Source of the DNA: an uncultured Gammaproteobacteria bacterium
GTDB lineage: Bacteria > Patescibacteriota > Patescibacteriia > Magasanikbacterales > UBA922
Length of the DNA stretch: 64,000 nucleotides
Direction: 5' to 3'
Assembly (NCBI GenBank): GCA_964566225.1
Contig: CAZMHV010000003.1
Coordinates: 6,658-70,657 of the forward strand
The translations under genes and the position numbers were made by a program. The notes under the pieces are model-generated. The model ran no database searches and was not told the origin of the DNA. It worked only from the letters and a program-made list of their open reading frames with translations. Positions 22,952-48,742 of the stretch are shown here, piece by piece (the first letter of the stretch is position 1; the number at the start of each line of letters is the position of its first letter).

Positions 22952-23094
22952 ATATGGGGCTTATACTAGCAGAAAAGATGGAATTGGTAAAGTCTTTCTG
23001 CTTGAATTTTTGAGGTGTAAGTGATATGGTAGAAAAATAGATATTTGAGAAGTGTTTTTTATGCAACATGAAGAAAAAAAAGAAAAATAATACT

Positions 23095-24228
23095 ATGCAA
23101 AATTTTACCAATATTCCAATTATTCGAAATATTCTCTCTCATACTGGCCGTCTCGACGGCGACGACACCGGTTTTCGTTCAGTCGCTTTGAGTCCACTTG
23201 ATAAAATTAACCCAGATCCACTTGTTCTCATAAACAAGAGAGTAAAGTGTTATCCAAGAAATAGAAAATTCCAACGCAATAATTTTGATCCTATTATTTG
23301 TGATGGCAGTGTAAAAGATGAAAGAATGTTTTTGCGTGAGCCTGCTATACGTGCCATAGAAGAAGTAAATAATTTGCTAGAACCTTATGGAAGAGAGTTG
23401 GTACTCGTTGGTGCGTTTCGTCATGTTCACTCACAAGCGCTTGTTTTTTCGGACGCTTTCAATCGTTGGCTTGGTGAAAAAGAGTACGATCAACTCACTG
23501 TAACCGAACAAATACAACTCGGACGTAAAGCCAATGAAGCTGCTTTGTTTGTAGACATTTTACAAGATGATTTGTACGAAGGTGAAAAACAAAAAATAAA
23601 AATGAGTGATACTTTTTATGACATAATTTCTGCGGCAAAAAATTTAGAAAAAACTCCAGATCAGATAATTGACGAACTTTTCATTTATGAAACGAATCTT
23701 GGAAAATTGAATCTCAACCTTGATAAAATTGCGTCCACTGCACATGGAAATGGAGGTTCTGTTGACGCTTGGGTTATTGATTCTTCAAGTGGTAAATTTG
23801 TAAATCGTGGTGTACCAGCTGCATATAACCATGCTCCTGCTGTAATGGATTATTTTGAATGGGCTACGGTAGAAATGTTTGAAGACGAGAGACAAAAGAG
23901 TCCTGTACTCGATGCCTATCTGAGTGGTTATGGAGTAGAAAAAATAACAGAATCTGTTATGAAAGAAATTCGTAATGAACGAAGAATCTTGTTTCACGCC
24001 ATGATGCATGTGGGTGCAACGTATTTTTCTTTGGGCAAAACAGAAGGTGAATGTTGGCATTTTAATTTTGGAAATGAACGGGGAGGAAATCAGTTTGATG
24101 TATTGCCCTTTGGTGGTGGAGCACCACATTCTTTGTTAAAAAATATACGAGAGAAACACACAGAAGAAGTTACTGCTTGTTGGACCAATGAAGTAGCACA
24201 TAACATGTATGATCAATTGATGAAATAA
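23095..24228 (+). CDS. Peptidase M15 family protein (VanX-like D-Ala-D-Ala dipeptidase-like)
   Basis: 'STAHGNGGSVDAWV' resembles the M15 'SxHxxGxAVD' zinc-ligand motif. Start taken after the poly-Lys region (ORF track 23068). Confidence 0.45.
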   Translation: MQNFTNIPIIRNILSHTGRLDGDDTGFRSVALSPLDKINPDPLVLINKRVKCYPRNRKFQRNNFDPIICDGSVKDERMFLREPAIRAIEEVNNLLEPYGRELVLVGAFRHVHSQALVFSDAFNRWLGEKEYDQLTVTEQIQLGRKANEAALFVDILQDDLYEGEKQKIKMSDTFYDIISAAKNLEKTPDQIIDELFIYETNLGKLNLNLDKIASTAHGNGGSVDAWVIDSSSGKFVNRGVPAAYNHAPAVMDYFEWATVEMFEDERQKSPVLDAYLSGYGVEKITESVMKEIRNERRILFHAMMHVGATYFSLGKTEGECWHFNFGNERGGNQFDVLPFGGGAPHSLLKNIREKHTEEVTACWTNEVAHNMYDQLMK

Positions 24229-24265
24229 ACAATTTTTTATACATCGAAAAAATTAATTTCAACCA

Positions 24266-24300
24266 ATAAAAAAATTCTGATGATACATCAGAATTTTTTT
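24266..24300. terminator. Bidirectional terminator
   Basis: AAAAAATTCTGATG(ata)CATCAGAATTTTTTT. Confidence 0.6.
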
Positions 24301-24342
24301 CACTTTTGTTGTGACGAATAGTTCGTCATCACAAAGGCAGGC

Positions 24343-24386
24343 GGCTCGGCGACGACTGGACCGAAGTGGTCAGCGTCGCCGAGTCG
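24343..24386 (-). terminator. GC-rich hairpin just downstream of the high-GC lipoprotein gene
   Basis: CTCGGCGACG(19-nt loop)CGTCGCCGAG, a perfect 10-bp GC stem. Confidence 0.45.
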
Positions 24387-24441
24387 TGAATTGAGGATTG
24401 AGAGATGTTGATCGAGTCTCGCCGTGGAGGCGAGTGGAGTG

Positions 24442-25431
24442 TCAGCGCTTGGCCGCGGCCGCCGATCCGTTGCAGTCCAGCAACGACTTCTGGTTCTCCG
24501 TGAGGCTGGCCTCAAGGTCTTCGCAGAGTCGTTCACCGAGCCGCTCTTTGTCGTTGAGATTCTGTTCGCCGTATTTCTCCCCGTCCTTCGGAAGCTTCTT
24601 CCAGGTCTCGATGAGCTCGACGATGCCCTTGAGCTTCTTCTGGGCGACCATCTCCGGGGTCAGACCGTTGTAGATCTGGTTGGGCTGGGATTTGCCCTCG
24701 GAGACGAAACCAGAGAACTTGTCGACCAGGCTCACCCGATCGCCGTCGTCGCAATTCGGAGAGCTCACGCAGAAGAAGGTGGTGCTGGGGAAGGGCTTGT
24801 CGAAGAACACGATGTTGGCCAGAGCCTTGAGGTGGGCCAGGTTCAGCTCGTCGAGCTTCGCCTGGATCTTCTCGTCCGAGACCTCGTTGTTCGTCGTCAC
24901 CCCACTGGGAGAAGGGTGCTTCCTGAACCGCTCGAGGGGGTGTTCACAGGCGCTCAGCATGCTGAGTGCCTTCATGTACTCGTCGCGCAGTCGTCCCGCG
25001 CCGGTCTTGTCCTGCGCCGTGGCGGGCGTGGCCGCGGCGTTGACCTGGTTCGCGAAGTCCTTGGCGCCGAGGGGGTTCTCTCCATTCAGGCAGGCAGTGG
25101 CCTCCTTGGTGAGCCTGGCGAAGTTCTCCTTTTCTCCCGACGTGCTGCCGGGCGCGGCGCTTGTGGGCTCGAGGGCGCCCGATCCGCCGACCTTGACGGG
25201 TTCGGCGAACCGCGAGGTGAGCAACATGCTCAGTTTGTTGATGCATGCCTGCGCCGACATGAACTCTTCCGGTGTGCCGGTCGGGCACACGACCTCCACG
25301 TCATTGGCCGTGGGGGGTTCGTGGTAGTTGTAGGAGGACGAATCTTCCTCCACTTCTCCGTTGCAGCCGGCGAAGACTGTGGCCAGGATGGCGAGGAAGG
25401 CGGCGAGCGCCAGGACGATGCGGATCGGCAT
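24442..25431 (-). CDS. Putative lipoprotein encoded in a compositionally foreign (about 60% GC) segment
   Basis: 329 aa with signal peptide plus lipobox 'ATVFAGC'. Codon usage is strongly GC3-biased, unlike all neighbours. No known domain recognised. Confidence 0.6.
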   Translation of the reverse strand: MPIRIVLALAAFLAILATVFAGCNGEVEEDSSSYNYHEPPTANDVEVVCPTGTPEEFMSAQACINKLSMLLTSRFAEPVKVGGSGALEPTSAAPGSTSGEKENFARLTKEATACLNGENPLGAKDFANQVNAAATPATAQDKTGAGRLRDEYMKALSMLSACEHPLERFRKHPSPSGVTTNNEVSDEKIQAKLDELNLAHLKALANIVFFDKPFPSTTFFCVSSPNCDDGDRVSLVDKFSGFVSEGKSQPNQIYNGLTPEMVAQKKLKGIVELIETWKKLPKDGEKYGEQNLNDKERLGERLCEDLEASLTENQKSLLDCNGSAAAAKR

Positions 25432-25713
25432 CGGGGGATTCCTTTCAACAAGACACTATTTGGTTTCTCTCGATCTCTCGATCCAGCTTCTTTAGTCCCT
25501 AAAAACTAGGAAACCAAAAAAGCTGGATCGAAATTCTCTCAATTCAGTTGTAAAATAACGTGATTTAAGCGCAAAAATTGAGCTAAATCAACGAGCGAAT
25601 ATACCATAAAAAGAGAAGTTTGTCAAGTATATGTGAATAAATTTGCTTGTATAGAGCAAAATTTATAAGTTTTTTTAAAAATACTCATGATTTTATGATA
25701 TACTTTCTGTACT

Positions 25714-26541
25714 ATGCTCTCCATTCTCGACCCCCAATTTAGCAGCACCCACAATTACAAAAACGACGAAATGCTCCGCCGTCGACGAGCTTTGTATGAA
25801 TACGAAGTCAACCGTGTTGATATTTTTGCCGAGCTCATGGATGTTGTCGGTCAACACCCTGCATCGACACTGCTAGATGTGGCCTGTGGGTTTGGAGATT
25901 TTTTGATTCGTTTGCGTACGGAAAGAAAATTTGAGGGGAGATTGGTTGGAATTGACGCCTCGTCTGGAATGCTCCAAAAACCAATACAAATAGCTTTAGA
26001 AAAAAATTTGAATATTAAATTTGAATCTGCTGACGTGCATCACTTACCTTTTGGCGACGAAGAGTTTGAGAGTATTACGTGCAATTTTGCTTTGTATGCT
26101 TTTGAAAATATGCCACAGGCAATTACCGAAATACACCGATGTCTCAAAAAGGGTGGGTATTTTATTGGTGCTGTGCATGGAGAAAATAACCGACCAAAGT
26201 GGTCATCTTACTTGCATAAAATCTCAGATATGTTAGGGTTAGAAAGTCAGCCATTTGCTTGGGATCGTGTGAATATCCAAAACATTGATTCATCGTTATC
26301 GGGTTTTGTTGTAAAAGAGAAAAAATATTTTGAAACCATTATTCGACTACAAAATGCTGAACCCTTTGTTGACTATACTGATACTTTTCGTGACTTGCGA
26401 TATAACCCCGTGCCAACGGATGATCAGTGGAGTCAGGCACTTGACCTGGTGAGAAGTGAAGTGAACAAAGAAATTGAGCAAAATGGCTTTTTTGAAGAGA
26501 TTTCAAAAACAGGAATATTTATTGCACAAAAATTAGGATAA
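25714..26541 (+). CDS. Class I SAM-dependent methyltransferase
   Basis: Motif I 'LLDVACGFGDF' and Rossmann-fold MTase layout. 275 aa. Confidence 0.7.
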   Translation: MLSILDPQFSSTHNYKNDEMLRRRRALYEYEVNRVDIFAELMDVVGQHPASTLLDVACGFGDFLIRLRTERKFEGRLVGIDASSGMLQKPIQIALEKNLNIKFESADVHHLPFGDEEFESITCNFALYAFENMPQAITEIHRCLKKGGYFIGAVHGENNRPKWSSYLHKISDMLGLESQPFAWDRVNIQNIDSSLSGFVVKEKKYFETIIRLQNAEPFVDYTDTFRDLRYNPVPTDDQWSQALDLVRSEVNKEIEQNGFFEEISKTGIFIAQKLG

Positions 26542-26556
26542 AACCTTTTTCAACCT

Positions 26557-27843
26557 ATGTCCGACGTCGCCATACAAATTTTTTTCATTTTTCTGTTGTT
26601 TTTGTTCAACGGTCTTTTGGCCATGTCCGAAATTGCCATTATCACGTCTCGCCGCGCGCGGCTGGAACAACTCAAAGAAGAAGGAGACAAGCGGGCTGAA
26701 CTGGCTATTGAACTTTCTCAGAAGTCCGATGAGTTTTTGTCGACCATTCAAATTGGTATTACTCTGGTAGGAATTTTTGCTGGAGTATTTGGAGGAGCCA
26801 CGCTCACCAGTCGGTTAGAATCTTTTTTGAATACAACTTTTTTTTCTCCCTACAGTTCGGTGTTGAGTTTTGTGGTTATCGTTGGTGGCATCACATTTTT
26901 TTCTTTGCTCATAGGCGAGCTTGCCCCCAAACGCATTGCACTCAACAACCCCGAAAAAATTGCTCTGCGAATGGCACGACCACTCAAAATGCTTTCTCAC
27001 ATTACCTATCCATTTGTAAAAATTTTAAGTATTTCAAGTACCTTACTTCTCAAAATGATTGGGAGTTCGCCTCTCAGTCAGCCGCCCGTGAGTGAAGAAG
27101 AAGTAAAGTATCTTATTAAAGAGGGAACTGAGGCAGGTGTGTTTGAAGAAGCCGAACAAGACATGATGGAAAGTGTTTTGAAGCTTGGCAACAAGCCCAT
27201 TGGTGCACTCATGACTCCGCGAACCGAAATTGAGTGGCACGATATTGAAGATTCACTTGAAAAATTTCACGAAACCATTACCCAAAGTTCTCGGTCTGTG
27301 TTTCCTGTTGGAAAGGGAAGTCTTGATAATGTACTTGGTGTGATTCATACCAAAGATTATTTGTCCAAAAAACTTTCGAGCGATGTTTTTCCTTTGGAAG
27401 AAATTATCAAAGACAGTTTGTTTATTTTAGAGAGTACTCCTGTGCTAAAAGTCGTAGAAATGTTTAAACGCAGTGCCATACACATTGCTTTTATTATTGA
27501 CGAACATGGTGTGGTGCAAGGACTCGTGACCATCAATGATGTTCTTGAATCAATTATTGGTGATATTTCCCTCACAGGTGAACCTGAGTCAGTGCAGCGC
27601 GAAGACGGCTCGTGGCTCATTGATGGCATGCTTCCTCTCGACGAATTCAAAAAGATTTTCAATATTGAAAAATGGGCTGGTGAAGAAAAAGGACACTATC
27701 ACACTATGGGTGGTCTCATTTTGGTGCACTTTGGCAAAATTCCTTCTGTTGGAAATAATTTTGAGTGGAATGGATTTCGGTTTGAAGTGGTAGACATGGA
27801 TGGCAGACGGGTTGACAAGATACTCGTGACGAAAAAAATATAA
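26557..27843 (+). CDS. CNNM/CorC/TlyC-family membrane protein (DUF21 + CBS pair + CorC_HlyC domain)
   Basis: N-terminal 4-TM DUF21 ('MSEIAIITSRRARLEQL'), tandem CBS domains and C-terminal transporter-associated domain. 428 aa. Confidence 0.8.
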   Translation: MSDVAIQIFFIFLLFLFNGLLAMSEIAIITSRRARLEQLKEEGDKRAELAIELSQKSDEFLSTIQIGITLVGIFAGVFGGATLTSRLESFLNTTFFSPYSSVLSFVVIVGGITFFSLLIGELAPKRIALNNPEKIALRMARPLKMLSHITYPFVKILSISSTLLLKMIGSSPLSQPPVSEEEVKYLIKEGTEAGVFEEAEQDMMESVLKLGNKPIGALMTPRTEIEWHDIEDSLEKFHETITQSSRSVFPVGKGSLDNVLGVIHTKDYLSKKLSSDVFPLEEIIKDSLFILESTPVLKVVEMFKRSAIHIAFIIDEHGVVQGLVTINDVLESIIGDISLTGEPESVQREDGSWLIDGMLPLDEFKKIFNIEKWAGEEKGHYHTMGGLILVHFGKIPSVGNNFEWNGFRFEVVDMDGRRVDKILVTKKI

Positions 27844-27904
27844 TTTTGAAAAAAAATATGTTATACTACTGACAGAATCACCTGTCAGTTTTTATAATAC
27901 AACT

Positions 27905-29245
27905 ATGCTTTCACTTCCATTTCGTTTTTTGTTTGCACTGCTTATTGGTGCCATTATTGGTTTAGAACGTGAAAGTAGTCGCAATGACAGTGAACGTGAA
28001 ACCGAAACAACTTCTGCCGGAGGAATTCGAACCTATGCCCTCATATCACTCCTTGGAGGATTGGCAGGGTTTTTTTATTTGCAAAACATGCCAATGATGT
28101 TTTTGCTGTTGTCTGCCTTTGCAGCCATTCTGGTACTTTTGTATTATGCTATTGGGTCATCTATCACCAAGCACTTTGGTATGACCAGTGAAATTTCTAT
28201 TTTGATTACCTATATACTTGGGTTCTTGGCCATGTTTGAGGGAGTCTCAACGCAGCTCGTGGTTATTTTGCTTGTGGTCACCCTGCTTATTCTTTCTCTC
28301 AAGTCAAAAACACACAAGCTCGTAAATGGCATTTCACCCAATGAAATACGTTCTTTCATTAGTTATGCACTCATTGCACTTGTTGTATTGCCAATTCTTC
28401 CCAATACTCCAGTTACTCTTTCTAAAATTACGTTTCTTCATGATTTGCTCCAAAGTTATGGTGTTGATTTGGGGCAATTTGCTACCCTTGAAATTTTTAA
28501 TCCACGAAAAGTGTGGTTTGTGGTTGCCTTGGTTACAGGAATCGATGTGTTTGGATACATATTGGCCAAACTGGTTGGGGGGAAAAAAAGTTTTACACTT
28601 ACCAGTTTTGTAGCCGGTTTTATTTCGTCTACTTCGGCAACCGCTGCCTTGGCTCGAAAGAGTAACAAAGCATCCGATGTCCGACCTCTTGTGGGATCAG
28701 CGCTTCTGGCCAACATGGCAAGTTTTTTTCAAATTTTTCTTTTGGTCGGGCCAGTCAACGGTGCCTTTTTGGTAAGTTTAACTCCGACACTTCTTGCCAT
28801 TATTTTTGCTTCGGCTGGTTGTAGTGTGTATTTCCTTTCAAGAAAAGAAAAGTCTGTTCACATTTCAAAAGAAACCGAAAAAGAACCTGCAGAACGAGAA
28901 ATTTTTGCTCTCAAGCCTGCACTCAAATTTGCTGCTCTTTTGATTATCGTAAAACTCGTAACCAAAATTTCCCTTATCCTTTTTGGAAATTCTGGTTTTA
29001 TGGTAAGTTCGGTCATTGCCTCGGTTGCCGGTATTGATGCTATTCTTATCAACTTGGCTGACCTTGTCGGCAAAGGAATTACGATTGAAACAGGAATTTT
29101 GACCTTTATTTTGGTGAATGCAACCAATTTGCTTACCAAGTCACTGCTCAGTTATCTCAATGGGGGACGTGCTTTTGCCAAAAAGTTTTTTGCGTGTGTA
29201 CTCATTGTTATTGCCGCCAGTCTCATTGGATTTTTTCTCAAATAA
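27905..29245 (+). CDS. MgtC/SapB family membrane protein with DUF4010-like C-terminal domain
   Basis: 'LLIGAIIGLERE' MgtC signature at the N-terminus. Polytopic, 446 aa. Confidence 0.7.
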   Translation: MLSLPFRFLFALLIGAIIGLERESSRNDSERETETTSAGGIRTYALISLLGGLAGFFYLQNMPMMFLLLSAFAAILVLLYYAIGSSITKHFGMTSEISILITYILGFLAMFEGVSTQLVVILLVVTLLILSLKSKTHKLVNGISPNEIRSFISYALIALVVLPILPNTPVTLSKITFLHDLLQSYGVDLGQFATLEIFNPRKVWFVVALVTGIDVFGYILAKLVGGKKSFTLTSFVAGFISSTSATAALARKSNKASDVRPLVGSALLANMASFFQIFLLVGPVNGAFLVSLTPTLLAIIFASAGCSVYFLSRKEKSVHISKETEKEPAEREIFALKPALKFAALLIIVKLVTKISLILFGNSGFMVSSVIASVAGIDAILINLADLVGKGITIETGILTFILVNATNLLTKSLLSYLNGGRAFAKKFFACVLIVIAASLIGFFLK

Positions 29246-29380
29246 TTTGTCTGGGGATAACTTCACTTGCCTAAAAAGTACTTTCAGTATACAGTAAATA
29301 TATATGAAGCAACTCACTCTCAATAATAACAATAATAATACCCTCAATACGTAGGTGAGTTTTTCTTTTTCAAAATCAAA

Positions 29381-29410
29381 AGACTCTCCTATGTGGAGGG
29401 TCTTTTCTTT
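29381..29410 (+). terminator. Terminator after MgtC-like gene
   Basis: AGACTCTCC(tatgtg)GAGGGTCT followed by TTTCTTTT. Confidence 0.5.
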
Positions 29411-29436
29411 TGTGGGGGAATTTTTGCCCCATATAT

Positions 29437-29508
29437 TCCCGGGTAGTTGAGTGGTACAACACCTCGCTGTTAACGAGGATATCGCTGGTTCGAGTCCAGC
29501 CCTGGGAG
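29437..29508 (+). tRNA. tRNA-Asn (anticodon GTT); integration target of the mobile element
   Basis: Manual fold: acceptor TCCCGGG/CCTGGGA (one G-U), D-arm GTTG/CAAC, anticodon stem CCTCG/CGAGG with loop cuGTTaa, T-arm GCTGG-TTCGAGT-CCAGC, discriminator G. The 3' end is overlapped by the recombinase ORF. Confidence 0.8.
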
Positions 29509-30975
29509 CATGGCTGGACGTTCCTTATATTCAGCGAGTGCCTGAAGGGGACTTCTTAGCTCAAATAAAAGGTTTTTACCTCTCAACTGTAAGTTCTGAA
29601 ATACAAAGTTGAGTATTTGGCGTTTCTCTTCGATTTCAGAACTTTTGAAAATGTCAGAAGCTCTTTGTGCTAAAGAAAGAAGCTGTGTTGCGCTGAGGCT
29701 ATAGTTTTCATCTGCATTTGTGTGGTCTTCTAGTTGAAGCTCAATATCTCGTTGCTTTTCTTTGATCTGTTTGAATTTTTTATCATAGACGTCCTTAGTA
29801 ATACTACGGTCGAGCATAAAGTCAAGTAGGGTATCAGATTGTGCTTGAAGGGCGTCATATTCGTTTCTAAGCGTGTTTACAGCCTGAGAGTGATATTTAC
29901 TCTTTGTTTCGTTCATCGTGTGTATTTTAGCCGTAATTTCTGCCACTTGTATATCTGAAAGTTGGATACTATTGAATGCCTCATAAACAGGTTTTAAGAG
30001 ATCATTTTCATTTACATAGATACGTTTGCAAGTATATTTTGAGTTTGTACAACTATAATGGTTATATATCTTTTTGTGTCGCTCAGCGGTAACTCGACAA
30101 CCACAGTTGGCACATGAAATAAGTCCTTTAAAGATAAAGGGGTGTGAGATTGATTTAAACGGAGTCTTTTTCTTTGATAAGCGTATTTTTGTAGCTTGTT
30201 CAAAAGTATAGCGAGAGATAATTGGCTCGTATTTATGTGGATAGGGTTTAGTTTTAGAGATCATCGTTCCACAATAGAAAGGATTTTTCAATATACATTC
30301 AATCATGCTTTTGGAGAGTATTTTCCCATTAGCACTTTTTAATCCTTCTTTTTCCATTATATTTTTTATATCAAGCATTGATGTGGTGCCAGATATGTAC
30401 AGATCAAAAATCTTTTTTATATATTGCCTTCGAGATTCATCGACTATAATATCTCGTTGATTTTTTTCTTCACCAATATTGAGGTAGCCAATAGGTGCTC
30501 GGCCTATCCATTCGCCGTTTCGTAGTTTTTGTTCGTAAGCACGTTTAACATTATCACTGATTGCGTCAGAGTAGTATTTTGCTAGGTGTAGATTCATTCC
30601 AAAGTGAAATTTTTCTGTTGCAGAGGTTTTTTGATCTATGACAAGATTTTCAGATGTAAAGTGCAACTCAATTTTTCCTTGTTGAGCCATTTCGTATAAA
30701 AGGGGAACACGCTTGTCAAAGACATTGCGTGAAAGACGATCCACCTTATCAAAGCAGACAGCAACTGTTTCCTTTTGGTTTTTAAGATATTCAAGAGCTT
30801 TATCAAATTCGTCTCGTTTTTGTTTATACGCACTTTCGTCAAAGACAAACTGTTTATCTATTTTTAATCCTTTTCTATCACAATAATCCTCGAGTCGTTT
30901 AACTTGAGCGGGTAGAGAGTTACCAGCTTCTTTTTGTTCTTCGGTAGAGACTCGTGCTAGAATTATCGATTTCAT
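29470..30975 (-). CDS. Large serine recombinase (integrase), copy 1; C-terminus altered by the attL junction
   Basis: N-terminal resolvase domain 'ILARVSTEEQ...' with catalytic Ser, recombinase domain, zinc ribbon 'CANCGCRV...YNHYSC', coiled coil. The last 10 aa differ from copy 2 because the ORF crosses the att crossover into the tRNA. Confidence 0.85.
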   Translation of the reverse strand: MKSIILARVSTEEQKEAGNSLPAQVKRLEDYCDRKGLKIDKQFVFDESAYKQKRDEFDKALEYLKNQKETVAVCFDKVDRLSRNVFDKRVPLLYEMAQQGKIELHFTSENLVIDQKTSATEKFHFGMNLHLAKYYSDAISDNVKRAYEQKLRNGEWIGRAPIGYLNIGEEKNQRDIIVDESRRQYIKKIFDLYISGTTSMLDIKNIMEKEGLKSANGKILSKSMIECILKNPFYCGTMISKTKPYPHKYEPIISRYTFEQATKIRLSKKKTPFKSISHPFIFKGLISCANCGCRVTAERHKKIYNHYSCTNSKYTCKRIYVNENDLLKPVYEAFNSIQLSDIQVAEITAKIHTMNETKSKYHSQAVNTLRNEYDALQAQSDTLLDFMLDRSITKDVYDKKFKQIKEKQRDIELQLEDHTNADENYSLSATQLLSLAQRASDIFKSSEIEEKRQILNFVFQNLQLRGKNLLFELRSPLQALAEYKERPAMLPGLDSNQRYPR

Positions 30976-30988
30976 ATGCTTTGTATTG

Positions 30989-33817
30989 TTAACTTGTCAA
31001 TAGCTTCTTCTGAAAATCTATTGCAAAGTCGCCTTCGCCACGAGTATCAGAGTTATAGAACTTTATGCCGATTGGCTTTATTACTTTGTAGCCGTGCTTA
31101 CTCATTTCAGCTAGATAATCTTTGTAGGCCTGCTTGTCGTTTTCGCCTGCATCAAACACAACATCACTGTCATCGTTCAGACTTATCAAGGCTTCTTCTT
31201 TCCAAGCGTCTTGTGCTAGCAAGTGACCACCCTTCGGCTCAATAATTACCTGATAATACAGTTCGTTGCGAGCCACATCATTGATGATGAGTACATAGTC
31301 TGGGCTAAACCTACGACCATCTTTTATGTTATATAGCCAATAGTCCAGTTCGTTACGAATAAGATATATTTCAGCACCTTCGTATCTAGTGTGTAAGTCG
31401 GCAATCTGGCTCGCTAAATATTTCACGAAGCGTTTTTCTTCACTTGTGCCATAGTTTTCACTATACGCATACCAGTCAGCATCTTTTATGTTGAACTGTA
31501 ATTCAGGGTTGTCGTGGTCGCTTTGAGCTTTAGCACGTTCATCAGAACTTATAAACACCTTTTCGCCCGTTACTGGGTCAACGGATGGAAACGACATCAA
31601 ATAAATGTCCTTTTCTTTGCTAAACACCTGCGATAATGACACTGGACGGAACTTGTTGCTACCAGCTTCACGTGGCATATAAATATCTATTCGCCTACGG
31701 ACTTCTGGCAATATCGCACCAACTAGCAGTTGGAGTTTTTCTTGAGCGTTTAGCGAGCCAATATCTTTACCGTCTTCGTAGGTATAAGTAATTGCGTATT
31801 TCGGCAGGTATTTGTTCATCAGTTCATCAACCGTTTGTAGTTCGGGTATATGATGACGTAGGTTGTTGAATCGGAAGAAGTTGGCTTCGGCACATACCAA
31901 CGCTTTGCGAATTATTGGTTCCGCAAAGAACTCATCGGTAATGCGTATAACTTTGGTTTTCTGACTCGCAATTTGTTGATTTTGCTCGTAATCGTTCAAA
32001 GCCCTTGCTCGCAGGTTATACAAGCCCGCTTTGATGGTGCGATTGAAGGTAGTGTCAATTTCTTCGTCAGTTGTTTTGTTGCGTTTTGTCGTGTGGTTGA
32101 CCAGCACAAATCCTTTTTTATACGTTTCGCTTTCTAAAAAGTGTTGTTTGAGTGTAATGGTCTTCTGTTCAATACCTTCATTAATAATACCTTCGCCCAG
32201 CAAATCACGTTGTAAGTTTTCTAGAAACATACCCGTTTTTACAAAGTGATACACGAAAGTTTCCAGCACACGCCCACGTTCAAACGGTGCTTTATCAAAT
32301 TTACGCTTGTACTTATCAAACTCTATATTTCGCTGTGTAAATTCAAATGTTTGGTTCTCTCTTTCGTCTGGCTTATACGAGCTTGGTAGTTCATAAGGGA
32401 AATACCTAGCCCCACGCCCAATCAACTGAATATCTTGTAACGACACCTTCTTGGCTTCACTAATATCAAAGTGAATAATGTCGTATAAACTCAATACGTC
32501 CCATCCTTCATTCAGAGCATTGACGCTAAATATGGCACGAATGGTGTTTCGTTGACTGTCTAACAGTGGCAATAGCTCGGCTTTTTCTTTCTTCTGACTG
32601 TTATATATCAACGTGTTGTCATGTGCAAAGCTTGCTCGTATTTCGCTAACAAACTTATTTAGTCCATCCCAATCGCCTTGTGTTACAAAGCCATTTTTAG
32701 GCTCCCTCAGCCAATCAAACAAATCTTTTAATATCTCGTGTTCACGATTGTTGTTTTCTTGACCCAATTCTTTTAGGTGGTTCAAATCTTCTGGTCGCAA
32801 ACTACTTATGACAGTATCAAAAAATGCACGGTCTTCTTCGCTTTGTGCGATTTTGACAGACTTTATCAACACCACAGGCTTCATCTCTACGCCCATTTCA
32901 CGCTGAGCAAGCAATCTACGATATTCGCTTAACACTACGGCATTGACTATCAGTAGGCGTTTTTGGTCTTCAGTGTGAACCTCTTTGTTGTATAGGAACT
33001 TCACGTCTTTGCTATACCTATCACGATTGAACTCCAAGAAATCGTAACGATGAACGAGCTTATCGCTATATTTAGTATGTATTGCTTCATTCGCCAAATC
33101 TACGGTTGCAGTATATTCAAGTAATAAGTTTTCTTCACGAGCCTTAACTGCCTTCATCACAGCAGTTTCCCAATTTCGCACTTCTTCTATATCGCCTTTA
33201 TTTTTACTGCGAGTATCTACGTTCAAACGGTGGGCTTCATCGGCAATAATCACCACGTTGTTATCGGCAAAATCTTGAGCTGTTAGTCCATTTTCTTTGT
33301 CTTCAATTAGATGGTTATACAGCAGTGAAGTGCTAAAAAACATAAAGTTGATAGCATTACGATCTGCGTCCGCTATACTTGGCACAGCTTTTATACCTAC
33401 ATTACGCCCATTTATTTTGACGCCTTTTGGGTTGAACAAATATTTTTCAAACTTGTAATCGGTAAAGTTTTTGAGCGCTTGGTCTTTAATTTGTATTTGA
33501 TGGACTAAAAATAGGAAGTTGCGGTAGCCTTGTGCGTATAGATACAGTACTACAGACGCCATTACGAGCGTTTTCCCAGTTCCAGTCGCCATATTGAACA
33601 GCACATGCTTGGCTTTTGCCCTGTCGCTTTCATACAGCCAAATAAAGTGTTTCAAGGCTCGCACTTGGTACTCACGCAGGGTTTTGCTCAAATTGTCCGT
33701 GATATATTCAGGCACAATAAATGAGCGTTCCCATATTTGGTAGGTAGGGTTGTTTTCTATTTGGTTGAATAGAAAATCGCCTAATGTTGCATTGATTTTA
33801 GTTTTCGTTTTCACCAT
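30989..33817 (-). CDS. res: Type III restriction-modification system, restriction subunit (Res; SF2 helicase + PD-ExK endonuclease)
   Basis: Walker A 'MATGTGKTLVMA', DEAH box 'IIADEAHRL', helicase motifs, C-terminal 'PDYVLII...IIEPKG' nuclease motif. Overlaps mod by 20 nt. Confidence 0.85.
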   Translation of the reverse strand: MVKTKTKINATLGDFLFNQIENNPTYQIWERSFIVPEYITDNLSKTLREYQVRALKHFIWLYESDRAKAKHVLFNMATGTGKTLVMASVVLYLYAQGYRNFLFLVHQIQIKDQALKNFTDYKFEKYLFNPKGVKINGRNVGIKAVPSIADADRNAINFMFFSTSLLYNHLIEDKENGLTAQDFADNNVVIIADEAHRLNVDTRSKNKGDIEEVRNWETAVMKAVKAREENLLLEYTATVDLANEAIHTKYSDKLVHRYDFLEFNRDRYSKDVKFLYNKEVHTEDQKRLLIVNAVVLSEYRRLLAQREMGVEMKPVVLIKSVKIAQSEEDRAFFDTVISSLRPEDLNHLKELGQENNNREHEILKDLFDWLREPKNGFVTQGDWDGLNKFVSEIRASFAHDNTLIYNSQKKEKAELLPLLDSQRNTIRAIFSVNALNEGWDVLSLYDIIHFDISEAKKVSLQDIQLIGRGARYFPYELPSSYKPDERENQTFEFTQRNIEFDKYKRKFDKAPFERGRVLETFVYHFVKTGMFLENLQRDLLGEGIINEGIEQKTITLKQHFLESETYKKGFVLVNHTTKRNKTTDEEIDTTFNRTIKAGLYNLRARALNDYEQNQQIASQKTKVIRITDEFFAEPIIRKALVCAEANFFRFNNLRHHIPELQTVDELMNKYLPKYAITYTYEDGKDIGSLNAQEKLQLLVGAILPEVRRRIDIYMPREAGSNKFRPVSLSQVFSKEKDIYLMSFPSVDPVTGEKVFISSDERAKAQSDHDNPELQFNIKDADWYAYSENYGTSEEKRFVKYLASQIADLHTRYEGAEIYLIRNELDYWLYNIKDGRRFSPDYVLIINDVARNELYYQVIIEPKGGHLLAQDAWKEEALISLNDDSDVVFDAGENDKQAYKDYLAEMSKHGYKVIKPIGIKFYNSDTRGEGDFAIDFQKKLLTS

Positions 33818-35513
33818 AGAACTTCTCGGTTAGTGCCTTTTCATCTTTCGATACTGTGTGCCGTGTATCGTTCATATCGGCGTAATTTAGGTATAGCTGG
33901 TTTTCGTCTAGTATGTCGGCAAGTGCCTGCTTGCGACCAGCCAAATCAAGCTTGCGAAAGTTTTCGTCTTTTTCAAACTCGGCACGGTCAAACCAGAACT
34001 TCAAGAAGGCGTTGTTACGCATATCTACATACAGGTTTTCCAGTTCTTTGATACTCGTGGCTTCCATAATAGCGTCAATATATTCTTGGTTGTATTTCTT
34101 CAACTCAAAGTAAACAAACGAGGTGTTGCTGTAATACTTTTTTATGGCATTTTCTAAACGCTTGAAGGTAACGTTATTTACATAGTCCATCTGTTCAATC
34201 AAGATGAACTTACGACTACCACCATCTTCGGCATTTTGAGCCATCACAGCCTGTGCGGTAGTGCCTGAACCACCAAAAAAGTCCAGCACGATGTCATCGG
34301 GCTCAGTGCTGATTTGTATACTGTCTTTGACCATAGCAACTGACTTAGGGTAACTAAATACTTTGCCACCAATCATGTCTTTCAAGTCGCTAGTCCCCGT
34401 TGTTCCAGAGTATTCAGGTCTAAACCAAAGCGATTTTGGTCGTTCTCCCTTTATACGAAGTTTAGTGTATATTTTATATTCGCCATTGACTTTTCTTACT
34501 TCCGTTTCGGTTTTCCATTTTTCCATAAGTGTATCTCTGCCCCAACGCCATCTTCGTTCAATTCCATTACTATCAATCGGTAGCATTTCAACACCGTTTT
34601 CAGATTTTGAGATAGACACTTCTTTTGTGTCGGGGTCGTAATAGACAGGGTAAAAAAGATTTGGTCGGTCTTCTCGCCGTGAGCCATCACCACTACGCTG
34701 TAATGGTATGCTTTTATATTTACTTATTTCATCTTCTTGCGGGTAACTGCTTGAATTATCAAAGTTGAAGTCTTTAATTTTTGCGTATTTGGCATTTTTA
34801 GCATATACAATCTTATTCTCGTGTGCGGGCGAAAAAAACTCGTTATATCTTCCCTTTAAATTATGGACAACAGCAAGCACACCAAGCCTATTTTCATAAC
34901 CAAAAATCTCGTCAGCCAAAACGCCCAAATAAAACAATTCGTAGTGGTCAATATCTATAAAAATCATACCATCTTCGGTCAGCAACTCTTTGGCTACTTC
35001 AAGTCTGTTTTTCATAAATGTAAGCCACGAACTGTGATTGAAGTTATTGTTATAGGCAAAGGTGTTGGCGTCCGTGCGGGTATTGTAAGGCGGGTCAATA
35101 TAAATGAACTTAACTTTGCCCGCTAAGCGTTCACGCAGGGTATAAAGTGCTAACAGGTTGTTGCCCTTGATAAGCAGGTTTTGTTTTAGATTGTCGTCTT
35201 CGTCAAAAAACTGAATATCGCTATCGGCGGTCAGTGCCTTTTCTCCGTCTTTGTCTATAAGGCGAAAGTCAGTTAGAACCTTCGGTTCTTCTAGTGTGTC
35301 TATATCTTTACTATCTAGCGTTTGATGTAAAAAGCGTTCATCACGCCCTACATCTTCTTTGCTCATACCCGCTTCCAGCACAGCGTCCTTGAACGGAAAT
35401 GATAACACTACATCGTTATCGTTTTTGATAAAACTGCCCTTACTCGTACTGACCAACCCTATCTTATTCGGATATTGCGTATATCTTCCTTTTTTAGATG
35501 AATTATTTGTCAT
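33798..35513 (-). CDS. mod: Type III R-M modification methyltransferase (Mod; beta-class N6A/N4C MTase)
   Basis: Motif IV 'IYIDPPYNT' precedes motif I 'LDFFGGSGTTAQA' (beta-class order typical of Type III Mod). 571 aa. Confidence 0.85.
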   Translation of the reverse strand: MTNNSSKKGRYTQYPNKIGLVSTSKGSFIKNDNDVVLSFPFKDAVLEAGMSKEDVGRDERFLHQTLDSKDIDTLEEPKVLTDFRLIDKDGEKALTADSDIQFFDEDDNLKQNLLIKGNNLLALYTLRERLAGKVKFIYIDPPYNTRTDANTFAYNNNFNHSSWLTFMKNRLEVAKELLTEDGMIFIDIDHYELFYLGVLADEIFGYENRLGVLAVVHNLKGRYNEFFSPAHENKIVYAKNAKYAKIKDFNFDNSSSYPQEDEISKYKSIPLQRSGDGSRREDRPNLFYPVYYDPDTKEVSISKSENGVEMLPIDSNGIERRWRWGRDTLMEKWKTETEVRKVNGEYKIYTKLRIKGERPKSLWFRPEYSGTTGTSDLKDMIGGKVFSYPKSVAMVKDSIQISTEPDDIVLDFFGGSGTTAQAVMAQNAEDGGSRKFILIEQMDYVNNVTFKRLENAIKKYYSNTSFVYFELKKYNQEYIDAIMEATSIKELENLYVDMRNNAFLKFWFDRAEFEKDENFRKLDLAGRKQALADILDENQLYLNYADMNDTRHTVSKDEKALTEKFYGENEN

Positions 35514-35516
35514 AAT

Positions 35517-35882
35517 TTATTGGGTACTTACTTGTTTTAAAAATGTATCAAACTCTTTTTGATCAATTCTGTATTCTTTACCAATTTTATATGCTGTTAA
35601 TTTTCCAGCTTTGATATAACGATAAATGGTCATCGGGTTAACCCTTAGTTTATTTGCTAGTTCTTCTACTAAGTAAAAGTCATTTTTATTTTCTTGTTTT
35701 GACAGATCTATTTTTACTATAGGAGCTTCTTGGTTATTTTTAGGAATTGGTTTATAAACCAGTTTTACCAACTGTAAAAGTTTATGTGCCTGTTGAAAGG
35801 CATCGTCCTTGGATAATCTTTCGCCAAACTGTTCCTCGTATAACTTTTGAAACTCTTCTAGAGCTTTATCATCTATTTTCAT
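35517..35882 (-). CDS. Excisionase-family HTH DNA-binding protein (candidate recombination directionality factor or regulator)
   Basis: C-terminus 'MTIYRYIKAGKLTAYKIGKEYRIDQKEF' matches the HTH_17/Xis-MerR-like motif. 121 aa. Confidence 0.6.
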   Translation of the reverse strand: MKIDDKALEEFQKLYEEQFGERLSKDDAFQQAHKLLQLVKLVYKPIPKNNQEAPIVKIDLSKQENKNDFYLVEELANKLRVNPMTIYRYIKAGKLTAYKIGKEYRIDQKEFDTFLKQVSTQ

Positions 35883-35923
35883 ATGTTTATAGTTAATGTA
35901 ATTATACTTTACTTTGGTTTACA

Positions 35924-37045
35924 TTACAAACTGAGTTTATAGGGCTCAAAAGTGGATAACTCTTTTTCAATATCTTGAACAAAACCATGGGTATTTATGG
36001 GGAAAGGAGGGGATTTAAAACGTGCCAAGTCTCTTTTAACGTCATTCCAATCTGCCTTGGGTCTATAAGAAGCCACAATAGTCCTGAGTTGTCTCATTCC
36101 TTGGTCTTTGGCTAATAAATTAAAGCCTACAGCCTTAACGGCTTGTTTTATGCTTAGTGTTGGGTCGTGGTGAAGTGTCCTTTTAAGGATAGAAAGTGGA
36201 TTCGTATCCATATCAAGTACAAATTTGTTATTATCGTTAAAAAAGTCAGACCAATATTTTTGAAGGATGTTTTGGGAACGTTCATGGCTTAGGATATCTT
36301 TAAGGGTAGGATTTTGTTTATAGCCAAGTTTGAATAATGTCTTGTTTACGTATTTTTTGGTGGAAAGGCGTATTTCAATTCGTAATAATTTGTGAGATAT
36401 TATCGAGTTTTTTACTTTGTCAAAAAGAGAAAGTTGTTTATCAGTTTTATCTTGATCCATTGAACGTTTTTGAGGCCTTGGTATATCTGCAAACTTGTCG
36501 TACATAACAAAAGAATGTGAGTTAGTATAAAACTGGTAAGCATACCCTTCGTTACGAAAGTCGGCCTTATTTGTATCCATACGTTTGGATATGTCAATTT
36601 TTGCAAGTTCCTGTATGGCGAGGGTGGCTGTGTATCCGTCAGACAAAGGTATATTCTTTCCTACGTGAAAGGCTACAACTGGAGCCTCTAAAAGATGATC
36701 TGTGAGTATCATAACTCCACGTTCAAACATTCTTTTCCTTAAGGTATCTATTGCTTTTGTATAGTCTTCTTGAGTATATTCGTTTATATTTTCACCGTCG
36801 TTTATGAGCTTTGGGATAGAGCATTCTACTTTCAAAACACGTGTTTGGGCATAGTATTGTGTCGTATAGAGTGTCATGCGTGGATAGTAATGACTTTCTT
36901 TTTCCTGTTTGCTCGGGTTATTTTTGAAGTTGGTTCCAGGGAAAAATCTAAGACTCCCAACGCCATCTGTTGGAGGTGAAAATTTATCGTGGTGCATTAT
37001 TTGATAACGTCCCCAAGGAATGAGGAATATAACAGTATCTACCAT
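35924..37045 (-). CDS. Hypothetical protein of the element (possible replication-initiation/Rep-like function; unverified)
   Basis: 373 aa with no confident motif. Its position between Xis-like and SpoVG-like genes is typical of replication/maintenance modules. Functional guess only. Confidence 0.35.
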   Translation of the reverse strand: MVDTVIFLIPWGRYQIMHHDKFSPPTDGVGSLRFFPGTNFKNNPSKQEKESHYYPRMTLYTTQYYAQTRVLKVECSIPKLINDGENINEYTQEDYTKAIDTLRKRMFERGVMILTDHLLEAPVVAFHVGKNIPLSDGYTATLAIQELAKIDISKRMDTNKADFRNEGYAYQFYTNSHSFVMYDKFADIPRPQKRSMDQDKTDKQLSLFDKVKNSIISHKLLRIEIRLSTKKYVNKTLFKLGYKQNPTLKDILSHERSQNILQKYWSDFFNDNNKFVLDMDTNPLSILKRTLHHDPTLSIKQAVKAVGFNLLAKDQGMRQLRTIVASYRPKADWNDVKRDLARFKSPPFPINTHGFVQDIEKELSTFEPYKLSL

Positions 37046-37073
37046 ATCATTACATCTTTTGGGCCTTACAATT

Positions 37074-37334
37074 TTATATAATTTCTTTAACTTTTTTAGT
37101 GATTGCGTCTTCTATTGCTTTGCTTGTCTCTTTATCTATCGGGTGGTATATGTTAAAACTCTTTTCTGCTACTTTTTTGGTAGGATAGGTTATTCTATAT
37201 CCTGAGCCATCTAGCTTAAGGTGTACGCCTATGGACCCAAGGTAGAGAGAGTTGTCTATAACTATAGAGGCCATAGCAATTAGGCCATCTTTAGGCTTTA
37301 TTGGTACTATCTGTACTTCTGTTACGTTTTTCAT
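37074..37334 (-). CDS. spoVG: SpoVG-family protein (mobile-element encoded)
   Basis: 'MKNVTEVQIVPIKPKDGLIAMASIVIDNSLYLGSIGVHL...YPTKK...HPIDKETSKAIEDAI' is collinear with SpoVG (MKVTDVRLRK...ALVSITLDEAFVIHDLRVI...). 86 aa. Confidence 0.7.
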   Translation of the reverse strand: MKNVTEVQIVPIKPKDGLIAMASIVIDNSLYLGSIGVHLKLDGSGYRITYPTKKVAEKSFNIYHPIDKETSKAIEDAITKKVKEII

Positions 37335-37454
37335 AAAGTTGTGGATTATTACGTTTATCTATTTCCCAAAGCAAAGCAAAAAACTGAGCAAGATTTGTGA
37401 TCTGTCCGTTTGTAGAGGGGATCTGGTTGTCAGTCTCTTTTGGATACATAAAAC

Positions 37455-37483
37455 CTGATGGTGTTATCATCAGGTTATCATTG
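37455..37483 (-). terminator. Terminator after the 273-aa element gene
   Basis: AACCTGATG(gtgttat)CATCAGGTT with a T-run on the minus strand (GGTTTTATG). Confidence 0.5.
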
Positions 37484-37518
37484 CTTTACATTTGAAGATA
37501 AGAAGTTAGTGACCCACG

Positions 37519-38340
37519 TTAAATTTCTTTTGATCTTCTTTGTTTTTCGAGTTGAATGAGTTTGGTTATTTCGTGATAAATCAAGCCATTTTTAGGAAAC
37601 TTTTCATTAAGCTTTTCTTTGATCTTTTTTGCGGGAAGTGTCTTGTTTTCCCAGATAAAATCAATCATTTCTTGGCTATGTTTTCTTTTTCGTATTTTAA
37701 AGGCTTTTTCTTGATATAAAGTTTGAGCATTTTCAATCCATTTCCACCTTTTTTCAATATAATCTAAAACATCTCTTTTTGAAGCTTTTTGATTTATACA
37801 AATAGCTATTGGATAAGAAGCAAGCATCAACTGACGTTTTGTATTAAGATATATAATTTCTTCACCTTTATTGGCTGGATTTAATTCATCATCACAAAAA
37901 TCAACTAACTGACACATATCCACGATCGAACCCGCTTGAAGAGACAACTGAGGATAGGGATCGGTCTCGTCGATTAACGCCTTAGCAAACATGAGAAGAT
38001 CCAGGTCAAGTCCATATTTGGAAGCTATCTTTTCTTCTTGAATAAAATACTTAGTTCTTAAAAGCTTTTTACATCTTTTGCGCAATAACTCGTATCCCTT
38101 GATAATAAAGTCAAACTCATTGTTAAAATCGTTATGTCTTTTCTTTTGTTCTGGTGTATAGGTATCAAAATTTCCACTGCCATCTAAAGCATTCTGTTTT
38201 TTTTCAAATTGTCGCAACTTCTTGATATCTTTACGAAAGTTTTTATTTCTAATCAGGTCTTCAATGTAACGAAGCATTTTATTTGTCCCTTGGGTAGGGG
38301 GCCAGCTATGACCTTCTTCAGCTATTTTTACACTTTTCAT
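37519..38340 (-). CDS. Hypothetical protein (first gene of the element operon)
   Basis: 273 aa, Lys-rich, no motif recognised. Confidence 0.5.
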   Translation of the reverse strand: MKSVKIAEEGHSWPPTQGTNKMLRYIEDLIRNKNFRKDIKKLRQFEKKQNALDGSGNFDTYTPEQKKRHNDFNNEFDFIIKGYELLRKRCKKLLRTKYFIQEEKIASKYGLDLDLLMFAKALIDETDPYPQLSLQAGSIVDMCQLVDFCDDELNPANKGEEIIYLNTKRQLMLASYPIAICINQKASKRDVLDYIEKRWKWIENAQTLYQEKAFKIRKRKHSQEMIDFIWENKTLPAKKIKEKLNEKFPKNGLIYHEITKLIQLEKQRRSKEI

Positions 38341-38434
38341 ATTCTTTACAATTGTTAAGTATTGTAAAGAATAACAGAATTTGGTATAAAATTAAAGTGA
38401 AAGTAGTCCTTTATAATGAACTGGCGGCACTGTT

Positions 38435-44831: not shown

Positions 44832-44834
44832 AAT

Positions 44835-47658: not shown

Positions 47659-48145
47659 ATTCTTTACAATTGTTAAGTATTGTAAAGAATAACAGAATTT
47701 GGTATAAAATTAAAGTGAAAGTAGTCCTTTATAATGAACTGGCGGCACTGTTGTGGGCTTTTTATATCGTTACGTCACTTTAGCCGTTCCCGATAGGAAC
47801 TGTATGGTTCTTATCTTGGAACGGGCTAAAAGTCGAACGTTTCTATTTATTCAGTCTGTATTTGACTTTTCTATGAAAAATAGAATGACAAGTAAGAGTG
47901 TCGCTCGTAAAGCTTCAGGGCTTTTACGAGCTAGTGTTACCAAGACTGTGAAAGCAGTTGCTGGTAGTGCTCTTTCTCAGAGGGCTCCTAAAAGAGCGAC
48001 TCGGAAATAACTCTTAAAACTTGCCGCCAGTTTATTGTAAATGAATTTTTAGTGAGTGGTTATATTTTTAAAACGTGATAATAGTTCAGTTCCATTTAAT
48101 AGGTTTCTCCATTCTACAGTTCTGAACGCGTCCAGCAAGGGGAGC

Positions 48146-48742
48146 TGAATCGGCCATCACTAACTCCCTAACGGGTACGGTGGTGGCTTTTTTTGTTTCA
48201 TTGGGCAGAACGTTTACCCAATTTTCAGCGTGAAGGGCAGAACTCGAATTTTGAACGAAATCAATTGAATTGGGCTCTGTAACAAATGAAATTTTAATGG
48301 TTTGAGGGGAATAATTAATTTTTTGAATTGTTCGTTTCGCCAATAAATTGCTGCTCTGTCCCGTTTCGGTTTTTACCTTTGAAATAAACGATTGAAGTGT
48401 CTGAGTGACCATTTCAGGTGTGAGTTGGGATTGACTTGGACTGAGTTCGAGCCCTGCCTGGCCACCAATAGACTCATTTTTTAGTCTAAAGACAAAACTC
48501 TCGACATATTCTTTATCCACAGCAATTCTTCCCAGATTTTCTACGATATATTGTTCAAGCCTTTCAGCACTCACTTGTTTAGTGCTGCATGCCTCCCAAT
48601 CTCGTTTTGTAACACTACTACATCGATAATAATTATACCTCTTCATTTTGCCTTCTCTCCATTTGTTTGTGAAACACCCTGACATATATGCACCACATTC
48701 CGTACAGGTGATAAGCCCTCCGAAAAGATAATGTTTGAACAA
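48146..48742 (-). pseudogene. Remnant of a related large serine recombinase (zinc-ribbon plus coiled-coil C-terminal half only)
   Basis: 'LFGGLITCTECGAY...YNYYRC' parallels 'FKGLISCANCGCRV...YNHYSC' of the intact integrase. The N-terminal catalytic domain is absent. The ORF tail (to 48086) runs into element end sequence. Confidence 0.5.

Follow-up and report, generated by a model that had tools for sequence, protein, structure and literature searches.

A GC-rich putative lipoprotein gene at a variable locus of a low-GC genome: recent import or resident unit?

How does one gene come to differ sharply in base composition from everything around it, and how long can such a difference persist? The question is raised by a GC-rich island in a stretch of 64,000 nucleotides from contig CAZMHV010000003.1 (hereafter the window, meaning the whole stretch of DNA that was analysed). 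The island coincides with a single minus-strand gene for a putative lipoprotein of 329 residues. Islands of this kind, confined to one gene, are as a rule taken for recent horizontal transfer, and a preliminary description of this DNA proposed a recently acquired, unameliorated gene, possibly from an actinobacterial host of an epibiont. That default reading appears to fail for this island, which persists over a species-level split, is seen again in a relative where a different gene follows the same leader, and comes with no detected donor. The reading preferred here, at a probability of about 0.5, is that of a resident single-gene lipoprotein unit, conserved in its lineage, with a GC-rich body that was acquired before the lineages split and that is exchangeable or mosaicised by recombination.

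The compositional island is real and statistically extreme, far beyond chance. In a 200-bp sliding profile, GC climbs from 0.30-0.40 to 0.58-0.70 over roughly 24300-25450 and then drops back. A maximum-likelihood three-segment fit places the boundaries at 24336 and 25437, and the interval between them has 62.7% GC, compared with 37.7% +/- 3.0% (maximum 44.8%) in 1.1-kb background segments (z = 8.4). All other 1-kb bins of the 64 kb are at or below 43% GC. Tetranucleotide composition gives the same picture, with an L1 distance of 0.906 between the island and the remaining window, against 0.315 +/- 0.031 (maximum 0.416) for other segments. Both checks proposed in the preliminary description, sliding-window GC and tetranucleotide signatures, set the interval apart from the background and bear out the abrupt single-gene island that it had claimed. 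The minus-strand open reading frame (ORF) with signal peptide, lipobox and bias in third-position GC was likewise confirmed as the coding sequence (CDS; Table 1). GC at its first, second and third codon positions (GC1/GC2/GC3) is 0.585/0.433/0.858, whereas the 27 native ORFs stand at 0.49/0.34/0.32 and none exceeds a GC3 of 0.42. The further statement that only the CDS is GC-rich holds at the 5' edge and fails on the 3' side: the GC-rich stretch (63% GC) starts 6 nt ahead of the ATG, continues for 106 nt past the stop codon, and thus takes in a 3' untranslated region (3'UTR).

The junctions of the island recur in independent assemblies. A Logan contig from SRR16481187 (L001, 6,501 bp) matches window 23033-29533 at 100% identity and spans both junctions, and the proteins of the window are also recorded from a 187,920-bp NCBI contig with the same junctions. 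A second Logan contig, from SRR25018341 (L087, 30,983 bp), aligns with window 23078-25712 (87.5% identity), and the alignment runs right across an orthologous island at the same position. A third, from SRR22388034 (L003), has the same promoter and leader and breaks off after the first 15 nt of a GC-rich CDS whose product starts MQTRI. An assembly chimera, or contaminating high-GC reads joined into a low-GC contig, would account for the compositional jump itself and for the L003 contig stopping so early in the gene. It is scarcely conceivable when the same junctions occur in the NCBI, SRR16481187 and SRR25018341 contigs, when the flanks on either side are collinear with the same genome, and when promoter, ribosome-binding site and terminator all fit the gene. 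The earlier judgement that the contig is not chimeric is therefore upheld by L001, by L087 and by the leader and five codons of L003.

The comparison with L087 bears most directly on the age of the island. The preliminary description had named equally GC-rich homologues in close relatives as the mark of an old resident gene, and such a homologue was found. The L087 orthologue (318 residues, beginning MLNRIILPTLMLLAALATSC) occupies the same place and orientation, has a GC3 of 0.881 and shares 80% amino-acid identity with the window protein. Synonymous and nonsynonymous divergence (dS and dN, Nei-Gojobori estimates) between window and L087 is considerable in the flanking genes. It amounts to dS 0.21 and dN 0.006 for the CNNM transporter (dN/dS 0.03), 0.32 and 0.047 for the neighbouring 386-aa gene (0.145), 0.51 and 0.044 for MgtC (0.085), and 0.62 and 0.012 for the N-terminal part of ABC-F (0.019). 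With flanks at dS 0.21-0.62 and an orthologue of undiminished GC3, the claim of recent acquisition is not supported. Over its whole length the lipoprotein gene has dS 0.171, dN 0.125 and dN/dS 0.73. Among database relatives, the CNNM transporter has matches at 98, 96, 89 and 83% identity, below which identity drops at once to about 60%.

These whole-gene values conceal a mosaic of a conserved C-part and a hypervariable N-part. Between window and L087, the C-part is about 93-95% identical at the nucleotide level (dS 0.088, dN 0.06) and the N-part about 50% identical (dS 0.57, dN 0.45). Both N-terminal alleles are GC-rich, with GC3 values of 0.85 and 0.93. Nucleotide identity is 77-92% in the 5' leader and 87-97% in the 3'UTR. 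As a separate observation, the L003 contig, which comes from an 88%-identical relative, breaks at codon 5, where the hypervariable region starts. Such a break would fit several alleles in the SRR22388034 sample splitting the assembly graph.

A more distant relative shows a different gene behind the same leader. Contig L006 (SRR22388219) also has ABC-F and CNNM/MgtC, with 75-83% nucleotide identity to the window, and its ABC-F to CNNM interval holds a different island of 1.6 kb and 57% GC. The encoded lipoprotein begins MQTRIILIAVVLALLGC and contains an RHS/YD repeat (Table 1), and after maturation it has nothing in common with the window protein (best BLASTP E = 1.3). Homology to the window is found in the promoter and leader, with a Smith-Waterman score of 46 against 18.4 +/- 2.4 for 500 shuffles. 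Moreover, the first codons agree with those of L003, the common start among the relatives being M-x-x-R-I-[IV]-L, and the gene ends at the same AAAAAAATTCTGATG...CAGAATTTTTTT terminator as in the window. The window, L087 and L006 each have a different set of genes between ABC-F and CNNM, which marks the interval as a variable region.

The search for a donor led to another low-GC context. A word-indexed search of 5.8 billion protein clusters with the 329-aa sequence returned nothing, and phmmer, run exhaustively against 1.84 billion representatives, gave one match, P0001 (E = 2.5e-4). In a pairwise BLASTP the two reach 2e-14; over the C-terminal 175 residues (window residues 146-324) they are 27% identical and share the motif ...RLCED..SLT..Q..L.C. 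A profile built from both sequences recovered P0001 again and nothing further. P0001 is itself a lipoprotein (...LTSGC) encoded by a gene of 59% GC and GC3 0.78, on a contig (L002) where the other genes have 45-46% GC and the upstream spacer 35%. The gene is preceded by a TTGACA-17-TGcTATACT promoter and by a leader with a 27-bp hairpin (z = -9.8), and a GC-rich 3'UTR comes after it. At the DNA level, back-translated patterns found nothing in metagenome and viral contigs, although these patterns are short and weakly conserved and the negatives are correspondingly soft. Plasmid and phage collections gave no match in tblastn or blastn, and the L006 protein gave none in viral contigs. The suggested high-GC donor, actinobacterial or other, thus found no counterpart in protein, metagenome, viral, plasmid or phage searches. 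The homology search meant to trace its lineage ended at P0001, itself a GC-rich gene in a lower-GC contig. What survives of the original proposal is a foreign-like composition confined to one transcription unit; its recent, unameliorated import is not supported, since besides the L087 orthologue the genes of L006 and P0001 are also GC-rich in a similar layout.

Public annotation has a part in this scarcity of homologues. In place of the lipoprotein gene, databases carry a long plus-strand ORF (Table 1) with its GC peak at the first codon position, as expected of the frame opposite a GC3-rich gene. Because A occupies only 8% of third positions on the sense strand, antisense stop codons are few. 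The codon-position profile bears out the earlier remark that long ORFs on the opposite strand are a side effect of GC content. The public calls are P0135 (NCBI, 361 aa, from the 187,920-bp contig) and P0134 (Logan, 356 aa), and no public record of the true 329-aa product was found. The called ORFs in L087 (2592-3491, plus strand) and L006 (1544-2386 and 2411-3067, minus strand) are likewise antisense, with a first-codon-position GC of 0.74-0.87. Since such calls occur at every GC-rich island examined, in NCBI and Logan alike, the true lipoproteins are missing from the 15-billion-protein collection.

Table 1. Features of the lipoprotein unit, in window coordinates unless L006 is named.
Feature	Position	Strand	Details and basis
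Sigma-70-type promoter	25598..25626	-	-35 TTGACA 25626-25621, 17-bp spacer, extended -10 TGgTATATT, hexamer 25603-25598
AT-rich 5' leader	25432..25597	-	About 160 nt, 38% GC; read from sequence
Long nested leader hairpin	25478..25531	-	About 26 bp; inverted repeat; RNA fold z = -3.7 to -5.5
Lipoprotein CDS	24442..25431	-	329 aa; ORF list, GC3, orthologue alignment, P0001 homology
Hypervariable 5' part of CDS (N-part)	25154..25431	-	Signal peptide and about 70 mature residues; comparison with L087
Conserved part of island (C-part)	24323..25150		Comparison with L087
Structured 3'UTR	24336..24441	-	62% GC; fold z = -7.3; boundary 24336 by segmentation
AT-richer hairpin	24305..24335		14-nt arms, 86% complementary; just outside GC-rich tract
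Bidirectional intrinsic terminator	24268..24300		15-bp stem between A7 and T7; common to convergent 386-aa gene and lipoprotein gene
Spurious antisense ORF	24424..25509	+	361 aa; codon-position GC 0.83/0.44/0.57; annotated publicly in place of lipoprotein gene
L006 lipoprotein gene	L006 1604-3076	+	490 aa; RHS/YD repeat; 57% GC; A at 3% of third positions

The gene sits in a complete transcription unit. In a promoter scan, its promoter matches 11 of 12 consensus positions plus the TG of the extended -10 element, and it is kept in L003, L087 and L006. Transcription would start near 25591, judging from the promoter position. The Shine-Dalgarno motif AAGGA (25444-25440) lies 8 nt ahead of the ATG. 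The leader hairpin recurs in L087, L003 and L006, and 9 of its 26 pairs are altered on both sides in L006 with pairing kept, a compensatory pattern. At the other end, the 3'UTR contains a long hairpin, CUCGGCGACGCUGACC...GGUCCAGUCGUCGCCGAG, with arms at 24342-24354 and 24374-24386. The perfect 10-bp GC stem noted in the preliminary description lies inside these arms, and the nested inverted repeat that it placed upstream is present as the leader hairpin. Its picture of a gene bracketed by terminators is accordingly half right: the hairpins are real, the terminator-like ones all lie 3' of the gene, and the upstream repeat belongs to the 5' leader. A search of Rfam gave no family match for leader or 3'UTR, only sub-threshold chance matches. 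Neither direct repeats at 24336/25437 nor, within the 64-kb window, a second copy of any part of 24300-25640 was found.

A further observation concerns the two ends of the mRNA. The 3'UTR at 24387-24406 has 8-12-nt complements to the leader at 25535-25546 and 25473-25484 (GAAUUGAG/CUCAAUUC and UUGAGAGA/UCUCUCAA). Pairing between the two ends would be possible in principle, but the number of matches is about that expected by chance in 1.7 kb, and the idea was set aside.

The product is probably an exported, lipid-anchored protein, to judge from its N-terminus. The sequence MPIRIVLALAAFLAILATVFAGC combines a signal peptide (residues 1-22) with a lipobox, FAGC, ending at Cys23. Within MPIRIVLALAAFLAILATVF, Arg4 is followed by 16 hydrophobic residues, a layout repeated in L087, L006 and P0001. 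The lipoboxes are F-A-G-C23 in the window, A-T-S-C in L087, L-L-G-C in L006 and T-S-G-C in P0001, and the cysteine is invariant in the alignments. At sequence level, the charged n-region, hydrophobic h-region and lipobox with +1 cysteine of bacterial lipoproteins are all present. The Lgt and LspA genes were both absent from the 64-kb window. The N-terminal part, to about residue 93, is variable and probably disordered, whereas the C-terminal domain is conserved, helical and cysteine-containing, in keeping with an all-helical AlphaFold model of low confidence. That model, built from a two-sequence alignment, is poor (predicted local distance difference test score 48.9), and a Foldseek search of the PDB with it gave no match below E = 0.5 and was disregarded. 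Searches of Pfam and of PDB sequences with the 329-aa protein found no match, and PHROGs gave one weak match to the signal peptide (E = 0.003). The protein has nine cysteines, the lipobox residue included, and two DsbA-like proteins are encoded in the window; disulfide bonding is plausible on that basis.

For the convergent neighbour of the unit (386 aa, 23068-24228, plus strand), searches of Pfam, PHROGs and PDB gave no match and GTDB no relative. It is nonetheless kept in L087 with a dN/dS of 0.145, which marks it as a real, if orphan, gene under purifying selection. On the other side, a divergent methyltransferase gene (25714-26541) has a -10 box, TATACT, that ends at 25704, 9 nt before the ATG at 25714 (region 25675-25716), and its mRNA would be nearly leaderless. 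In L087 this gene is deleted save for an 85-bp remnant (L087 3759-3843). Further along, a 9,337-bp unit occurs twice in tandem (29491-38827 and 38809-48145, 99.96% identity) and abuts the 3' end of a tRNA-Asn gene (29437-29509). In each copy a type III restriction-modification pair (Res, 942 aa; Mod, 571 aa) accompanies a large serine recombinase (501 and 520 aa), two further ORFs lack a Pfam match, and outside the copies' own pair a third, truncated recombinase lies at 48086..48742. The region 29437-48145 looks like a tandem integrative element, or possibly an assembly duplication. At 6831-6835, L087 joins the tRNA-Asn region straight to the glycosyltransferase cluster that is found from window position 57917 on, so about 28 kb of the window (29510-57917) is an insertion relative to L087. 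This insertion holds the tandem element, the DsbA-like proteins, a CDF transporter, an M14 peptidase, a caspase-domain protein and RmuC.

As to the organism, the ribosomal operon at 5906-8405 has the order S5-L15-SecY-Adk-Map, with L30 missing between S5 and L15. This order is compatible with, and not specific to, the Candidate Phyla Radiation (CPR)/Patescibacteria. Database labels conflict: a homologue of a neighbouring gene is labelled Candidatus Magasanikbacteria (60% identity), whereas the nearest GTDB relatives in the CNNM alignment (58-62% identity) carry the label 'uncultured Gammaproteobacteria'. The lineage is probably CPR, and the idea of an epibiont is compatible with the context.

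How, then, did the island arise? Recent import from a high-GC donor, such as the actinobacterial host of an epibiont, would require one unameliorated acquisition, and several features are in line with it. The extreme contrast is limited to one gene and its 3'UTR, and the GC-rich 3' hairpin is of the kind that serves as a terminator in high-GC bacteria. Amelioration is slow, so that a gene common to two species may still be 'recent', and both the gene order without L30 and the relative labelled Candidatus Magasanikbacteria are compatible with a CPR-type organism. Import of this kind is nevertheless improbable. The orthologue in L087 is equally GC-rich where the flanking genes differ by dS 0.2-0.6, and in L006 the homologous leader precedes another GC-rich lipoprotein, one unrelated to that of the window. 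The distant homologue P0001 repeats the layout on another low-GC contig, the searches returned no donor homologue, and in every case the 5' junction coincides exactly with a ribosome-binding site and start codon of native type. The evidence leaves one of two alternatives: either GC-rich sequences keep arriving from, or have diverged in, a GC-rich pool, or a force acting in place keeps GC high. The resident, exchangeable unit that we favour belongs to the former. A native AT-rich promoter and hairpin leader would drive a GC-rich surface-lipoprotein body, acquired before the lineages of the window and its relatives split. The body would later have been replaced or mosaicised by recombination that is anchored 5' in the conserved leader with the first codons and 3' in the terminator region, and the replacement DNA would be drawn from an unsampled GC-rich sequence pool. 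The high dN/dS, the hypervariable N-terminal tether and the L003 break all suit a surface protein on which selection is relaxed or diversifying; such selection (dN/dS about 0.7) may reflect contact with a host, a phage or another outside partner. The leader and 3' hairpins would most likely stabilise the mRNA. Several points weigh against this account. The GC-rich donor or reservoir was not found among 5.8 plus 1.84 billion representatives or in the DNA collections, and no recombinase, repeat or empty site that would mark the exchange mechanism was found. The related loci compared number four, two of them partial. The L006 unit is inverted relative to the shared terminator and has other neighbours, and 'same site' accordingly refers only to the ABC-F to CNNM interval. 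Lipidation at Cys23 and cell-surface display are predicted from sequence, for a protein with no Pfam, PDB or fold match. Finally, the C-part dS lies below that of every flank (0.21-0.62), which could mean synonymous-site constraint and would favour maintenance in situ.

Maintenance in place would dispense with a donor altogether: the family would be native to low-GC lineages, and its GC would be actively kept high by selection on mRNA or codons, whether for stability or for the speed at which an exported protein is translated, or by GC-biased gene conversion at a recombination hot spot. Although somewhat unlikely, this explanation draws on much of the same evidence. The known members (window, L087 and P0001) all lie in low-GC contexts, with none in high-GC organisms among about 15 billion proteins. 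A rough calculation with AT-biased neutral mutation towards a GC3 of 0.32 suggests that a gene at GC3 0.86 should diverge about 1.4-fold faster than its flanks, and that alleles at dS 0.57 would be expected at a GC3 of about 0.74. The N-terminal alleles stand that far apart and are nonetheless at 0.85 and 0.93, and the C-part has diverged 2-7 times more slowly than the flanks, which would be the opposite of the neutral expectation. Lysine (7.3%) exceeds arginine (3.3%) in the lipoprotein, unlike in a very high-GC proteome. Regressions associated with Muto and Osawa and with Lawrence and Ochman reportedly link GC1 to GC3; by them, GC1 (0.57-0.60) would be about 7-11 points under the GC3-based prediction, a pattern common to the four GC-rich genes. 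Recombination has left clear traces at the locus, and a GC-rich non-coding 3'UTR suits gene conversion better than codon selection. Against these points stands the size of the effect, since no case is known to us in which gene conversion or selection on codons moved the GC3 of a single bacterial gene from 0.32 to 0.86. The sharp 5' edge 6 nt before the ATG and a GC hairpin without a U-tract resemble an imported fragment with its own 3' end. Moreover, the GC-rich gene of L006 is unrelated, so that the force would have to act on anything behind the leader. In low-GC genomes such genes escape the gene callers and are under-sampled, but this bias does not account for the lack of family members in high-GC genomes. 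The substitutions are also unpolarised, the comparison having no outgroup. A broader form of the idea, in which the island belongs to a hidden class of lipoprotein units in low-GC, probably CPR-type, bacteria whose GC is heritable and actively maintained by mRNA selection or extreme gene conversion, is rather unlikely. Each such unit would combine a native AT-rich extended -10 promoter and a long leader hairpin with an exchangeable GC-rich body and a structured 3'UTR that is also GC-rich, and antisense gene calls would have kept the whole class out of protein databases.

The island could serve as a test case for gene-specific GC enrichment in bacteria, whether by biased gene conversion or by selection on mRNA. 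If the organism is a CPR-type epibiont, a swappable, fast-evolving surface lipoprotein behind a strong promoter would be a candidate molecule for contact with host or phage. The antisense calls carry a wider consequence: GC-rich genes of this kind in low-GC metagenome-assembled genomes would be systematically missing from protein databases, which biases both homology searches and the inference of transfer.

Among known systems, the closest compositional parallel lies in the atypical genes of Lawrence and Ochman and in prophage morons. As in those cases, one gene with its own promoter and terminator has a deviant composition, and codon-position GC is diagnostic. Unlike them, the unit in the window lies outside a prophage, keeps its position in a sister lineage and has no donor found; it also has a native-type promoter, leader and ribosome-binding site, with the compositional junction at the start codon. 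In addition, GC1 and GC2 lag behind GC3, which would be the opposite of decay from a high-GC origin. A moron in the strict sense was rejected, the neighbours being ABC-F, the 386-aa protein, the methyltransferase, CNNM and MgtC, with no phage DNA or protein match. A classical genomic island was also set aside, given no recombinase between 21 and 29 kb and no flanking direct repeats; the tRNA-Asn element at 29.4 kb is separate. Integron cassettes resemble the unit in that a single gene stands by a long imperfect inverted repeat and different genes occur behind a common promoter region. They differ in that the hairpin of the window lies 5' in the leader and not in a 3' attC, the gene has its own promoter, and there is no intI or attI. 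With the hairpin on the wrong side and no tyrosine recombinase among the scanned window ORFs, this candidate was dismissed. A diversity-generating retroelement was excluded likewise, as no template repeat occurs in the window and no reverse transcriptase among the scanned ORFs.

GC-biased gene conversion is reportedly known at recombining bacterial genes from work by Lassalle et al. in 2015. The island is like it in the raised GC3 and non-coding GC at a recombination-mosaic locus, and unlike it in magnitude, the shift in GC3 from 0.32 to 0.86 far exceeding reported genome-wide effects. In architecture, the nearest relatives are the variable lipoprotein loci of Mollicutes (Vsp/Vlp/Vsa) and Borrelia (Vmp/Vlp). 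These share a constant promoter, leader, first codons and lipobox, a variable mature part and fast protein evolution, and the window unit likewise has different lipoprotein bodies behind the same leader in related genomes. Unlike those loci, it has no silent cassettes, invertase, switching repeats, multigene cluster or paralogue in the 64-kb window. Its variation is seen between lineages, and the GC contrast between body and genome is foreign to those systems. The comparison of the window with L006 and L087 nevertheless shows the hallmark of a variable lipoprotein site, a constant 5' leader and start followed by different mature parts. The island can be placed as a variant of two known kinds, acquired genes of atypical composition and variable lipoprotein expression sites, carrying an orphan protein family.

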